Positions 32,990 to 63,243 of a stretch of DNA of 64,000 nucleotides are shown piece after piece (positions within the stretch are counted from its first letter, which is position 1; each line of letters begins with the position of its first letter). The notes under the pieces were generated by a model, which ran no database searches, was not told the origin of the DNA, and worked only from the letters and a program-made list of their open reading frames with translations. Both the position numbers and the translations under genes were made by a program. This stretch comes from Tidjanibacter sp. (GTDB lineage Bacteria > Bacteroidota > Bacteroidia > Bacteroidales > Rikenellaceae): NCBI GenBank assembly GCA_963640325.1, contig CAVHXY010000007.1:29668-93667 (forward strand). Direction: 5' to 3'.

Positions 32990-33216
32990 CGTTCCCTGCC
33001 CCGCCTGTTGAGGGGAACGAGAGCACGGACTATTACTTTTACAGTCTGGCGGCAATATACGAACGGTTCACGCCCGAACAGATAGGCTGTAAGGTTGAAC
33101 GCCTTTGGGCGGTGGGCGTGTCTGACGGAAAGGTTTACACCAACTCCAAAGTAACGATAAGCCGCCAAGAGATAATAAGGAAGAAACAACGACACCGCAA
33201 CGGGGTTACAGCGTAA
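32938..33216 (+). CDS. Phage-type hypothetical protein, probably N-truncated at the insertion junction
   Basis: YRVTF..DYYFYSLAAIYERFTPEQIGCKVERLW; lacks a convincing start and its 5' end overlaps the methyltransferase gene. Confidence 0.5.
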   Translation: MLRSFFCGSEKGRRYRVTFPAPPVEGNESTDYYFYSLAAIYERFTPEQIGCKVERLWAVGVSDGKVYTNSKVTISRQEIIRKKQRHRNGVTA

Positions 33217-33230
33217 GCGGAAAAAGTTAA

Positions 33231-33455
33231 TTATATGGTGCTCATAATGTCAAGACTTTCCTGCCAATCATTCGTCCAACGCAATTTACCGTCCTTGTAG
33301 AGAATGTATTGCGGAAAGCCGATAAAATGTGTTTCCCCGTCGGTAAAGATTGGCTCAATGACTTCGTATTCTTTCCACATTCCAACACGTTTCGCATCGT
33401 GATACCCGGCTTCTCTCGCCATTTTTTTCGCTTCAAGTAAAAATTTTTGCTTCAT
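33231..33455 (-). CDS. 74-aa protein, candidate immunity protein (copy 1)
   Basis: Directly downstream of the toxin-like ORF; 60/74 aa identical to 63019-63243. Confidence 0.75.
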   Translation of the reverse strand: MKQKFLLEAKKMAREAGYHDAKRVGMWKEYEVIEPIFTDGETHFIGFPQYILYKDGKLRWTNDWQESLDIMSTI

Positions 33456-33481
33456 ATTGTTGTATGTATTTATTTTGTTCG

Positions 33482-33489
33482 TAAATTTG
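33482..33489 (+). promoter_or_regulatory. Bacteroidota -7 promoter driving the candidate small RNA
   Basis: TAAATTTG, with TTG 19 bp upstream (33460-33462); the same element is conserved at 62986-62993 on the minus strand. Confidence 0.6.
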
Positions 33490-33495
33490 CGACAT

Positions 33496-33574
33496 ACAAG
33501 AAACCCTTGAGCGTAAGGGGGGATGTGAACCCCCAGTACTTAGATGTGCATCGTTCAAGGGTTTCTTGTTTTTA
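33496..33574 (+). ncRNA. Candidate structured small RNA, antisense to the toxin 3' end
   Basis: 18-bp outer stem (33496-33513 / 33552-33569) enclosing two hairpins, followed by a U-tract; G-U wobbles favour the + strand. Confidence 0.55.
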
Positions 33575-34922
33575 CCATACAATAGAATTGTTCCATGCCA
33601 TTATCCAATACTTCCAGCTTTACATTCCACGTTGTTCCGTTGTAATCGAATTTGTACAAATTATAGTGCGTCACATGTCGCTTGATTTTATTTTTTATGT
33701 TTTTCTGCGCACTTGGTTTTGTCATATCTTTTACTGCACCCATTTCGCTTCTTTCAACAAATTTCAAAACATTTGGGTTGTTCCACGCATATTCAGCAGC
33801 ATGAACTTCTTCTTTGCTGTATAAATGGTCAATAAGATTCTTCCGAGGTTCACCGCTCCTCTTCAATAAGCCTGTTTGTAAATTTTTGACTGTGGAAATT
33901 TCAGAAACCTTGAATCGTTCTCTATCACGGCGAAGTCCTTTTGTGGTTTCCAGCATTTTCTTATTAAAGCTGTTTACACTTCCTTCCGTTTTCTTCGTAA
34001 CATTCTTTATCCACCAAGCCTTTTGCTCTACGGTCATTACGGGTGTTGCCATAGTGCTACCCGCTTTCTTTACCACACCCTTAACAATAAGTGAATTAGG
34101 CTGCAAGTTATCAACACGGTAAGCCCGTATGCCTGCCTTGAAGTCAATGGCCGTTTTTTTGCCGATTCCTGCCCACGGCAAAATGTTCTTTGCCTCTATC
34201 CCCGTCTGTGGGTCATAAAATCGGCGTGTACCGTCTGCAAAGGTCTCCATCGTAATAATGTGGCCTTTCTCTTTTCCAGCCCATCTCCAACTTACATGAT
34301 ATCTGCCCTCCTGCGATGTTTGTGCCAAGAAGTCCCTCCACACGTCTCCCTCTGTCGTGTATGTGGCTCTGACATATCCCCGTCTATCTACGGTACGGCT
34401 CTTTACTGTCTGTCTGCAAACAATCGGAGTCGGTATATTTCCATTGGCATCCGTCCATGCCGCTCGAGTATTCCCACGGAGCAATGTTCCCACACCGTCC
34501 GCTGTTCGTCCAAAGGCTTCAACGGGAAGGCCTCGTCTGCGCAATTCGTAAGCCACAACAGTACTTTGACAATTCACGCGGTACTGTTCGTCCTCTTTGT
34601 AATGTGGATTCGGGTGCATCATGTCGGCTTGTTCGTGCGTCATAGGTGCGCCCACATCAACTCCAATAGCCTTTGCCAATTTGTCTATTTCTGTGACCGT
34701 TGTTTGTGTTGGTGCTGCTCCTTTGATTAGTCCTTTATTGTCACTCAAAAAGTAAGGCAATGACTTTGCACCCTCTATCCGCTTTTCATTGTTGGCTACC
34801 CATTCGCCAAAACGGGCAATGCCGCTGTCACTCCCCGAATAATCCCTGCCGATATAGTTCTTGCTCTCGCTCTCTTTTGTGGGTTCTTCGCCGTTCAATA
34901 TCCGTTCGGTGTCGGCTTTCAT
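33555..34922 (-). CDS. N-truncated MuF/phage minor-head-like polymorphic toxin: papain-fold (Tox-PL-like) domain plus probable C-terminal nuclease-like domain
   Basis: EMKADTERILNGEEP..WVANNEKRI..SLPYFLSDN resembles the post-MuF linker; NPHY..NCQSTVVAYELRRRG, GHII and FYDPQTG give a Cys/His/Asp triad; basic ~135-aa C-terminal domain. Confidence 0.7.
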   Translation of the reverse strand: MKADTERILNGEEPTKESESKNYIGRDYSGSDSGIARFGEWVANNEKRIEGAKSLPYFLSDNKGLIKGAAPTQTTVTEIDKLAKAIGVDVGAPMTHEQADMMHPNPHYKEDEQYRVNCQSTVVAYELRRRGLPVEAFGRTADGVGTLLRGNTRAAWTDANGNIPTPIVCRQTVKSRTVDRRGYVRATYTTEGDVWRDFLAQTSQEGRYHVSWRWAGKEKGHIITMETFADGTRRFYDPQTGIEAKNILPWAGIGKKTAIDFKAGIRAYRVDNLQPNSLIVKGVVKKAGSTMATPVMTVEQKAWWIKNVTKKTEGSVNSFNKKMLETTKGLRRDRERFKVSEISTVKNLQTGLLKRSGEPRKNLIDHLYSKEEVHAAEYAWNNPNVLKFVERSEMGAVKDMTKPSAQKNIKNKIKRHVTHYNLYKFDYNGTTWNVKLEVLDNGMEQFYCMVKTRNP

Positions 34923-62737: not shown

Positions 62738-62872
62738 TTCATGCTTCGGGTGTAGTTGTCACATATGCATATGACAACTCCGAACGGACAAAAATAAGCA
62801 AAATTAAGGATATTCGGAAACTGTTTTGTCGCACATGGGCAATCTTCAGCGGCTGCTGTCTAAGGTTTCTTA

Positions 62873-62980
62873 TAAAAACAAGGAGTGTCGTACCTACACT
62901 CCTTTATGTCCCCTTCGCTTAACATCTACCCAATCGGTACTGGCAGCTTCGCCCGCCGGGGACAAGGTGGTTGCGATAAC
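62873..62980 (-). ncRNA. Candidate structured small RNA (copy 2) with its own terminator
   Basis: Minus strand: TAAATTTG promoter (62986-62993); TGTCCCC..GGGGACA stem enclosing two hairpins with CCAGTAC..TAGATGT; terminator AAGGAGTGT-loop-ACACTCCTTGTTTTT. Confidence 0.5.
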
Positions 62981-63018
62981 CAATGCAAATTTACGAACAA
63001 AAAATAATCGACCAAAAT

Positions 63019-63243
63019 ATGAAGCAAACAATTTTACTTGAAGCGAAAAAAATGGTGAGAGAAGCCGGGTATCATGACGCAAGACGAATCGGCACGTGGA
63101 AAGGCTTTACAGTCATAGAGCCGATATTTACAGACGGGCAAGGCTACTTTATCGGCTTTCCGCAATACATTCTCTACAAGGACGGCAAATTGCGTTGGAC
63201 GAATGATTGGCAGGAAAGTCTTGACATTATGAACACCATGTAA
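63019..63243 (+). CDS. 74-aa protein, candidate orphan immunity protein (copy 2)
   Basis: 60/74 aa identical to 33231-33455; no toxin gene adjacent. Confidence 0.75.
   Translation: MKQTILLEAKKMVREAGYHDARRIGTWKGFTVIEPIFTDGQGYFIGFPQYILYKDGKLRWTNDWQESLDIMNTM

Follow-up and report, generated by a model that had tools for sequence, protein, structure and literature searches.

What neutralises a phage-type toxin that carries two candidate toxic domains and is followed by one small protein gene? The question is raised by a cassette within a 64,000-nucleotide stretch of a Tidjanibacter sp. contig (hereafter the window), in which a 455-aa reading frame is separated by a spacer from a gene for a 74-aa protein (Table 1). 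The original prediction was that the small protein blocks a papain-like domain, and that a folded RNA specified by the spacer blocks a C-terminal, nuclease-like domain.

The cassette and its two toxin-like domains

The layout is as described: the papain-type triad motifs NCQS (C118), GHII (H221) and YDPQ (D237) are present in the 455-aa protein, its separate C-terminal domain is basic (pI 9.8, net charge +11), the spacer of 99 bp (33456-33554, expected as about 100 bp) holds a promoter box on the strand opposite to the toxin together with a stable fold, and the 74-aa gene follows it. NCBIfam returned nothing for either protein, and a search of 50,697 GenBank phage records gave no match.

Table 1. 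Features of the cassette and of a second module in the window.
Feature	Position	Strand	Remarks
Left flank, phage-derived: piece of convergent phage gene following MuF	33037..33195	+	96% identity to left flank of cassette on contig C5
Terminator-like hairpin 3′ of 74-aa gene	33192..33214	-	Weak: 2 in region vs 2.7 expected by chance
74-aa immunity protein for Tox-PL domain (candidate)	33231..33455	-	Linkage and complex model
Bacteroidetes -7 promoter box TAAATTTG for RNA, convergent on toxin gene	33482..33489	+	Sequence; consensus PMC7366714
Small structured RNA, inferred ends	33494..33575	+	18-bp outer stem, two inner hairpins, U-tract
Toxin ORF, 455 aa: MuF tail, Tox-PL and BECR-fold domain, without MuF core	33555..34922	-	
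Putative BECR-fold RNase, aa 316-455	33558..33977	-	No Pfam family; distantly LPD3/PBECR-like
Tox-PL/glutamine deamidase papain-fold core, aa 117-241	34200..34574	-	PF15644, E 4e-11; triad
MuF C-terminal tail, aa 1-78	34689..34922	-	99% identity to start of second cassette, contig C5, with other cargo
Possible 4-codon toxin-end remnant beside RNA2	62864-62875	+	Sole toxin trace there
RNA2, with separate terminator hairpin	62870..62985	-	Closest to RNA after CdiA_C-type nuclease of L025
Second-module -7 box TAAATTTG for RNA2	62986..62993	-	
Orphan copy of 74-aa immunity gene, 81% identical	63019..63243	+	No toxin gene upstream

The proposal that this is a MuF-type toxin stands for the family and fails for the protein itself. 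Its N-terminal tail matches positions 87-155 of a MuF profile (A7; E 2.5e-5) and has a weak PHROG match to Bxa (E 0.0014), and the four closest homologues (581-748 aa) all have the MuF core, which is absent here. With its core lost and no promoter box on the toxin's own strand, the cassette in the window is a truncated orphan, and it does not lie in a prophage. Its neighbors are a methyltransferase and a sugar transporter, and neither a full-length MuF nor any match to capsid genes from six related phages' loci is present in the 85%-complete genome; location in a head and packaging module applies to homologues such as L011 and not to the window copy. The phage-derived left flank marks the cassette boundary, and the cassette on contig C5 shares the MuF tail and carries different cargo. 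Among surveyed MuF proteins generally, the C-terminal ends include ADP-ribosyltransferase, zeta, CdiA_C, LPD3 and Tox-PL domains.

The expected papain-like domain is a Tox-PL domain (PF15644, 44.4 bits against a cut-off of 24.1), with C118, H221 and D237 invariant in all 16 aligned homologues. The 74-aa family accompanies Tox-PL in 14 of 15 loci when the search starts from the small protein and in 37 of 39 when it starts from Tox-PL; among 47 distinct nuclease loci it is found at 7 of the 8 with Tox-PL and at none of the 39 without, and it is associated with 23 of 24 proteins ending in Tox-PL. At L078, which has Tox-PL, no homologue occurs within 2.5 kb; L199 and L239 lack one too, and the MuF scan, with 11 Tox-PL proteins, shows the family at none of them. 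A model of the 74-aa protein with Tox-PL scores 0.80, against 0.35 for the best of three controls (solved complexes attain the mark in 116 of 157 cases, mismatched pairs in 2 of 215); its runs share at least 97% of contacts, with a partner pLDDT of at least 89, and place the region of the invariant G46 against C118 and H221. PDB sequence searches (queries A5 and A8) returned nothing, and therefore no solved complex of this kind was seen for the pair. Linkage and model agree with the predicted pairing, and the 74-aa protein very probably plugs the Cys/His active site. A likeness is offered by Imm35 (PF15567), a small alpha+beta inhibitor tied to Tox-PL1 (Zhang 2012, PMC3482391); Imm35 is also the nearest named ESM cluster (0.77), which serves as a lead only, and none of 34 members of the 74-aa family matches PF15567 at E ≤ 1.

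The C-terminal domain was expected to be BECR- or RelE-like, and comparison of its model supports a BECR fold at modest Z, a helix and a meander sheet of 4-5 strands agreeing with BECR structures. The model from 79 aligned rows has a pLDDT of 93.5 (38.9 from the single sequence), and its top 17 structure matches are chains of the RelE, ParE, BrnT, CdiA-CT and colicin D type; the assignment rests on the consistency of these matches, as each is weak alone (best Z 5.6, rmsd 2.9 over 74 aligned residues, every Z below 8; Foldseek gives nothing at E ≤ 0.001, with a best E of 0.11). Conserved residues are H366, K398, K412, R415, Y423, E444 and Y447. Of these, H366 lies in model helix 42-50 and is retained in 97% of 140 rows, and near the C-terminus no Ser or Thr is conserved at 45% or above, E444 and Y447 being 99% conserved instead. 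The Pfam profiles for PBECR1-5 and LPD3 place none of 79 family members above cut-off (L213 reaches 18.5 bits against 27 for LPD3), and two members have weak matches, one to LPD3 (E 0.0023) and one to PBECR3 (E 0.021). From the modelled fold we infer a nuclease activity.

The predicted RNA in the slot after the stop codon

The predicted RNA is framed by an 18-bp inverted repeat (33496-33513/33552-33569) that doubles as a terminator and encloses inner hairpins at 33518-33534 and 33536-33549, its 3′ arm overlapping the final 15 nt or so of the toxin ORF. The plus strand of the spacer folds into a three-way junction of -43 kcal/mol (z -7.9), with none of 200 shuffles as stable, and the minus strand folds less well (z -5.7). 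There is one such RNA, downstream of the toxin and on the opposite strand, with no repeat array at the locus. A sigma-70 scan, which is blind to Bacteroidetes promoters, found nothing relevant; Rfam has no match at gathering score in 20 loci, the best in the window (21 bits against 76) lying off the RNA.

Compensatory change is apparent within one set of six related RNAs that represent only three independent lineages, in which 15 of 23 pairs have changed on both sides (0 of 500 shuffles); these include 5 of the 10 inner-hairpin pairs, in both inner hairpins. UGA stands at the apex of 18 of 38 loops, where 6.8 are expected. Neither RNAalifold on 14 RNAs from different clades nor plain alignment across clades yields a consensus, and the RNA model R1 finds its own clade only (8 hits in 96 sources), with no further copy in its own genome. 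Mimicry of the tRNA-His anticodon by the window loop was rejected as a family trait, the triplet not being kept in the closest relatives, and general anticodon mimicry is not significant against shuffled loops (p 0.5 and 0.12; 0.078 and 0.154 in a re-centred window). Apical loops of single clades, compared with host anticodon loops, reach 7/7 for Asp and 6/7 for Tyr, Asn and Gln.

The slot after the stop codon was surveyed across homologous loci, and several features emerge. First, a strict convergent promoter box lies 40-85 nt past the stop at 41 of 47 nuclease loci, which are related and fall into about ten clades, compared with 5 of 151 control genes. Second, this box is followed by a stem-loop RNA of 53-83 nt, with a median gap of 4 nt to the stem; in 33 of 49 cases the RNA strand carries a U-tract, which the gene strand never does (0 of 49). 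Under the first rule adopted, promoter and hairpin occur together at 38 of 47 nuclease loci, with or without Tox-PL, and at 2 of 149 control genes, both of which are the ends of CdiA_C-like nuclease genes; under a rule refined afterwards the counts are 51 of 55 and 1 of 168. Third, the slot differs at other toxins: 47 of 60 MuF toxins have a convergent ORF in it, a convergent immunity ORF is present at 23 of 24 Tox-PL-terminal loci and at none of 15 in which Tox-PL is followed by a second (nuclease) domain, and promoter plus hairpin is seen at 1 of the 24 Tox-PL-terminal loci. Fourth, the form of the RNA tracks the nuclease clade; CdiA_C-type nucleases have a different RNA, and two true LPD3 fusions to MuF (L206 and L221) have the RNA slot as well. 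There are departures from the pattern, as an antisense ORF also ends in the slot at 6 of 47 nuclease loci, and the RNA rule is positive at four non-nuclease MuF loci (L105, L114, L141 and L159) and at L211. Linkage, on which the original prediction was to be judged, thus takes the form of a double dissociation, the 74-aa family going with Tox-PL and the RNA with the nuclease.

Possible roles of the RNA

We propose, with a probability of about 0.6 and chiefly from comparison of loci, that the RNA confers immunity in the manner of a type III antitoxin, within a three-part phage toxin-immunity module. The module would have its origin in the head-assembly operon of a temperate Bacteroidales phage, where MuF would bear two toxic domains one after the other. 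Immediately past the muF stop, an immunity slot would be transcribed from a convergent host-sigma promoter and filled by a small protein gene for non-nuclease toxins and by a structured RNA of 55-85 nt for nuclease toxins. The RNA is in all likelihood made constitutively, and would probably bind and neutralise the BECR-fold RNase, presumably offering its apical loop, often UGA-containing, as a substrate-like decoy. The orphan cassette and several further fragments of MuF immunity are kept by the host, most likely to guard against the toxins of incoming phages or to serve as recombination donors, and not as virion-loaded weapons.

The position of the RNA, always on the opposite strand and right at the stop, is also what would be seen if convergent transcription lowered the muF message, by cis-antisense (type I-like) action or transcription interference, with the RNA never touching the protein. 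Antisense antitoxins that overlap the toxin 3′ end are known, and type I toxin-antitoxin pairs have extended antisense overlap with the small-toxin mRNA. Here stems overlap the end of the ORF by 2-22 nt in 26 of 49 loci, and type I candidates are mentioned in Bacteroides (PMC7366714). The median overlap is nonetheless 2 nt, with none in 23 of 49 (measured against the ORF only; the toxin mRNA may reach across the whole RNA), and with about three quarters of the stem span paired the RNA is a poor antisense seed. Such regulation, which we consider rather unlikely, leaves unexplained why RNA accompanies only nuclease toxins and a protein occupies the same slot at other MuF toxins, as well as the inner-hairpin covariation and the retention of RNA2 without a target. 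Quite unlikely too is a role as cofactor, guide or cargo, the domain and RNA being packaged in the head as a ribonucleoprotein active in the infected cell. One-to-one linkage and clade-specific RNA shape would fit any ribonucleoprotein, the nuclease domain is very basic, and Iyer et al. (PMC5512222) suggest RNA binding by inactive PBECR domains of MuF. However, the RNA takes the exact position and promoter of the immunity ORFs found at other toxins, it lacks a variable single-stranded guide, no target in trans within the host genome exceeds 13 nt, and the putative catalytic His is conserved, so that toxicity would be expected of an uninhibited domain.

A further reading concerns the protein half: Tox-PL would be a peptidase that cleaves its own protein to release the nuclease from MuF, held in check by the 74-aa protein, and the nuclease would be the one toxin. 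Auto-processing is what Zhang et al. (PMC3482391) propose for Tox-PL1 domains in internal positions, MuF fusions included, and Tox-PL is internal in the 455-aa ORF; this reading is improbable given that the 74-aa family accompanies nearly all Tox-PL-terminal proteins (23 of 24), where there is nothing to release, and that for Alexei et al. (PMC11699363) the glutamine deaminase of Bacteroidales MuF proteins is a toxin whose immunity comes from a small ORF. Finally, the spacer could be what remained once an immunity ORF was lost, a promoter that leads into a terminator, and its RNA would then be functionless. Outer stem and U-tract do make a normal intrinsic terminator, and RNAs of different clades are not alignable, but the arrangement is kept at nearly every nuclease locus in about ten clades with its 4-nt gap from box to stem, and neither the compensatory changes in the inner hairpins nor the excess of UGA apices would be expected, which makes this very improbable.

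Relation to known systems and orphan copies

Like MuF polymorphic toxins (Jamet 2017, PMC5576092) and the Bacteroidales Bxa family (Alexei 2024, PMC11699363), the module combines a MuF N-terminus, a variable C-terminal toxin and a small downstream immunity ORF, and the latter source includes a glutamine deaminase version whose partner is modelled as blocking the active site. Unlike them, it has two tandem toxin domains with one candidate partner each, one of these an RNA, and the window copy has no MuF core; the accessible portions of this literature describe protein immunity only, and both Bxa immunity proteins act on one domain (PMC5576092, PMC11699363). No described system with this layout was known at the outset; its protein half is already in print for Bacteroidales MuF toxins (PMC11699363). 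In type III systems (ToxIN, CptIN, TenpIN, AbiF and AvcID), too, the proposed antidote to a protein toxin, usually an RNase, is a structured non-coding RNA. In ToxIN, CptIN and TenpIN, tandem RNA repeats lie upstream of the toxin in one operon. RNA repeats are likewise given for type III systems in PMC8860590. Here, by contrast, the RNA is single-copy, lies downstream of the toxin under its own convergent promoter and has no Rfam match, the candidate toxin is a BECR-fold domain at the C-terminus of a head protein of the phage, and a second RNA class goes with the unrelated CdiA_C-type nuclease. The PBECR and LPD3 domains known from polyvalent proteins of phages (Iyer 2017, PMC5512222; preprint 10.64898/2026.08.28.747851) share the BECR fold, its fusion to MuF and the N-terminal-helix His; they differ in that no curated family reaches cut-off here, and the accessible text of these two sources gives them no RNA partner.

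Immunity to polymorphic toxins is always protein in the accessible parts of the literature consulted (PMC5576092, PMC11699363, PMC3482391), and we found no paper on an RNA partner of MuF, PBECR, LPD3 or CdiA_C toxins, most subscription papers being out of reach; an RNA antidote for the RNA-cutting part appears to be new for this kind of toxin. Known RNA antitoxins form a few defence-type families, and this one, if correctly read, would add a large new family, would account for the apparent absence of an immunity gene at many MuF nuclease genes, and would make uncharacterised phage nucleases clonable, testable toxin-antitoxin pairs through the rule of a convergent promoter and hairpin past the stop. 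The RNA loops may then indicate nuclease substrates, and orphan RNAs would be acquired immunity to phage toxins that gene annotation does not see. More tentatively, at somewhat less than even odds, Bacteroidota phages may hold a large unannotated class of small RNAs that is the standard immunity for virion-borne nucleases belonging to two or more unrelated folds (BECR/LPD3-like and CdiA_C-type). Each RNA would co-evolve with its nuclease as a substrate-shaped decoy, be swapped with it as a cassette, work alongside protein immunity where a toxin has two domains, and be stored by hosts as an orphan that protects against the toxins of incoming phages.

Orphan cassettes and polyimmunity loci, in which C-terminal cassettes and immunity genes occur without a full toxin, are described in Zhang 2012 (PMC3482391), and differ from those here, which are scattered among housekeeping genes and include one orphan unit with an RNA. 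This unit is the second module of the window (Table 1), in which RNA2 and a 74-aa gene are kept without a toxin; RNA2 is a single case. In the samples compared, the 74-aa family is absent from 46 other genomes of the genus and the cassette is absent beside the methyltransferase in three relatives. The genome also holds other orphan MuF immunity genes, contig C16 begins with three immunity-like genes, and at L083 an array of cassettes and immunity genes lies inside a phage.

The toxin locus and its two domains

The layout originally noted, with a toxin ORF, an opposite-strand promoter and folded RNA, and a 74-aa gene, is borne out by the ORFs, the −7 box and the fold of the spacer RNA (see table). 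The consensus that the box fits is the one given in PMC7366714. An 18-bp stem begins 6 nt past the box and encloses two inner hairpins, and a U-tract completes the RNA (z −7.9; none of 200 shuffles is equally stable). The toxin ORF matches Tox-PL (PF15644) at aa 117–241 (E 4e-11), in agreement with the proposed papain-type domain. Its four closest homologues are MuF proteins of 581–748 aa carrying both domains; the window ORF starts just past the MuF core and lacks it.

A profile search with the last 140 aa retrieved 196 representatives. The nuclease-like domain lies no more than 15 aa from the C-terminus in 145 of the 154 proteins examined, 33 of which also match Tox-PL, and residues H366, K398, K412, R415, Y423, E444 and Y447 are 93–99% conserved. 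None of 79 members scores above the cut-off of any Pfam family, and a single relative matches LPD3 below cut-off (E 0.0023). The predicted structure (pLDDT 93.5) has a helix and a meander sheet, with BrnT as its top structural match (Z 5.6, rmsd 2.9, 74 residues aligned). We read the domain as an unclassified BECR-fold putative RNase: the top 17 structural matches are RelE/ParE-type toxins, CdiA-CTs and colicin D, which we take, partly from the literature, to be BECR members. The BECR-like fold expected of this domain is supported by the consistency of these matches; each Z is modest, and a Foldseek search with the model returned nothing significant.

Features of the window locus, the related cassettes and the surveyed loci
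Feature	Location	Strand	Remarks
Toxin ORF, 455 aa	33555–34922	−	C118 in NCQS, H221 in GHII, D237 in YDPQ
Spacer, 99 bp	between 74-aa ORF and toxin ORF		holds promoter box and folded RNA
Promoter box TAAATTTG	33482–33489	+	fits Bacteroidetes −7 consensus
74-aa ORF	33231–33455	−	next after spacer
Toxin-less module: box, RNA2, second 74-aa gene	62864–63243		inserted between host genes
Second MuF-tail cassette	G000:C5:34039–35436		acetyltransferase-like cargo; convergent small gene
Tox-PL gene, C-terminal half	G000:C20:6150–6622		broken convergent small gene; amid housekeeping genes
Run of three small MuF immunity-like genes	G000:C16:1–720		start of C16
Same leader as C16, decayed first gene	G000:C15:1–60		start of C15
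Three MuF C-terminal cassettes in tandem	phage L083:1–4450		Tox-PL; Tox-PL + nuclease; peptidase-like
CdiA_C-type (PF18451-like) nuclease ends	L102, L160, L025/L180, L189, L190, L192, L193, L199, L060:612, L097:2012		

Protein or RNA past the toxin stop

The slot directly past the toxin stop holds either an immunity protein or an RNA. An unbiased scan for MuF gave 60 distinct loci (from the best 80 of 517), and in 47 of them a convergent ORF ends at the toxin stop. Such an ORF follows 23 of 24 Tox-PL-terminal toxins versus none of 15 with a second domain past Tox-PL. Each of these 15 second domains is of a nuclease-like type (BECR family, LPD3 or CdiA_C), and ten of the loci pass the RNA rule (a box on the opposite strand, a long closing stem and a U-tract, with z ≤ −2). 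The remaining five are of CdiA_C type; their strict box stands 71–124 nt from the stop, and their RNA is longer, with the terminator as a separate element. False positives of the rule are L105, L114, L141, L159 and L211, those at L114 and L141 being ends of convergent ORFs.

The predicted co-occurrence of nuclease domain and RNA is found among 47 nuclease loci (63 closed ORFs minus 16 exact duplicates; one open ORF excluded): 38 are positive by the fixed rule versus 2 of 149 control genes from these loci, each of the two being the end of a CdiA_C-like nuclease gene, though the loci are related (about ten clades) and their counts therefore overstate independence. A refined rule, made after inspecting misses and with eight loci added, gives 51/55 versus 1/168, and the strict box alone, 40–85 nt past the stop, 41/47 versus 5/151. 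An antisense ORF also occupies the slot at 6 of the 47. The slot RNAs are 53–83 nt long, with a median of 4 nt from box to stem and a U-tract after the stem on the RNA strand in 33/49 and on the gene strand in 0/49. The window's RNA clade, the only one with a second inner hairpin, shows changes on both sides of 15 of its 23 pairs, five of them in inner hairpins (6 sequences from three lineages; 0/500 shuffles; 1–3 pairs in slid controls). RNAs of different clades gave no workable alignment, and an Rfam search of the window and homologous-locus RNAs gave no match. UGA stands at the apex of 18 of 38 distinct loops (6.8 expected).

No ORF follows the CdiA_C-type ends listed in the table; in its place come a promoter in convergent orientation, a structured RNA of greater length and then a terminator. 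These RNAs are a second class. Two loci carry a tandem pair of structured RNAs past one nuclease gene (L097:2700–2900, L057:2887–3000), possibly a poly-RNA immunity array. RNAs of one nuclease sub-clade (L026, L184, L188, L213, L019) have a distinct common core, possibly with a pseudoknot or a long bulge beyond the reach of plain folding.

The 74-aa gene is tied to the papain-type domain, as the original prediction held. It has 42 homologues; Tox-PL is present in 14 of the 15 viral loci found from it (the fifteenth is cut at a contig end), and nine distant homologues are convergent to MuF genes whose last domain is Tox-PL. The family occurs in 37 of 39 distinct Tox-PL loci (best 80 of 296, minus open and duplicate ones) and, among the nuclease loci, in 7 of 8 with Tox-PL versus none of the other 39; of those 39, a few (e.g. 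L077) are short or cut. Co-folding with Tox-PL gives 0.80 versus 0.35 for the best control (the mark applied is reached by 116/157 solved and 2/215 mismatched pairs), with contacts agreeing to at least 97% and partner pLDDT at least 89; in the modelled complex, residues 43–47 would sit on C118 and H221. Against a strict pairing, the family was not found nearby at L078, L199 or L239, nor with any of 11 Tox-PL proteins of the MuF scan (best 80 of 517); other Tox-PL clades use other partners. In phage L011 (1457–3216) the homologue lies about 1.5 kb from its toxin and RNA, still linked, beyond two small genes and lysis genes.

The protein-immunity half is already in print: Alexei et al. (PMC11699363) describe MuF glutamine deaminases of Bacteroidales that have a small ORF beside them, together with a model of the complex at the active site. 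Zhang et al. (PMC3482391) tie Imm35 to Tox-PL1; Imm35 is the nearest named cluster to the 74-aa family by features (0.77), but none of 34 members has a profile match.

Role of the RNA

The anatomy, linkage, structure conservation and mutual exclusion with immunity ORFs are observed. The explanation we favor, with a probability of about 0.62, is that both Tox-PL and the nuclease domain would be toxic and that the RNA would be expressed, bind the nuclease and block it. That the RNA is instead an antisense element is unlikely: its overlap with the toxin ORF is minimal (median 2 nt), its pairing is near-complete, it is specific to nuclease toxins, and RNA2, the window's second structured RNA, has no target. 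It is rather improbable that the RNA serves as a cofactor in an RNP, very improbable that Tox-PL has a processing role, and scarcely credible that the RNA is a vestige.

Blocking of the nuclease by RNA would resemble the action of type III antitoxins. The layout of ToxIN, CptIN and TenpIN, in the descriptions compared, is not that of the MuF nuclease–RNA locus. By ancestry the family belongs with the MuF toxins, and the sections available of PMC5576092, PMC5512222 and the BECR preprint 10.64898/2026.08.28.747851 do not mention an RNA partner. A literature search covering mainly open-access papers found no description of a MuF nuclease toxin–RNA system.

Mimicry of anticodon loops, an idea prompted by single clades that match at 7/7 positions (tRNA-Asp) or 6/7 (Tyr, Asn, Gln), did not reach significance in two set-wide tests (p 0.5/0.12 and 0.078/0.154). 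One nuclease clade (L044:2889–2943 and relatives) has an RNA loop identical at 7/7 positions to the anticodon loop of the host tRNA-Asp, and its sister group is one base off. In two LPD3-terminated MuF loci (L206:3694–3761, L221:3643–3714) the inner hairpin of the RNA has a 5-bp stem, and its loop of 7 nt agrees with the anticodon loop of the host tRNA-Tyr/His at 6/7 positions.

Orphan cassettes

The source genome (1.9 Mb), its relatives and the phage homologues are Bacteroidota. The window copy, flanked by methyltransferase and sugar transporter genes, is an orphan cassette, and no full MuF was found in this 85% complete genome. The C5 cassette, its cargo labelled by likeness to L149/L157, shares ends of 236 bp (99%) and 160 bp (96%) with it; that both cassettes end at the same mid-gene points suggests either a duplication with later exchange of cargo or a defined mobile unit. 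An assembler could have exchanged cargoes between the loci because shared repeats bound both.

The second 74-aa gene (module at 62870–63243) is 81% identical to the first and is accompanied by RNA2 with an intact box, but by no toxin. Of 146 slots compared, RNA2 scores highest against that of L025 (63, where shuffled sequences reach at most 54). The second domain at L025 is CdiA_C-like (E 1e-8), and by this likeness RNA2 appears to belong to the CdiA_C-linked class. The toxin and the two 74-aa genes of the window have no promoter box ahead of them on their own strand, which leaves the RNAs as the sole genes with a visible promoter. In phage L083, the three tandem cassettes start at one same MuF point and each has a convergent partner.
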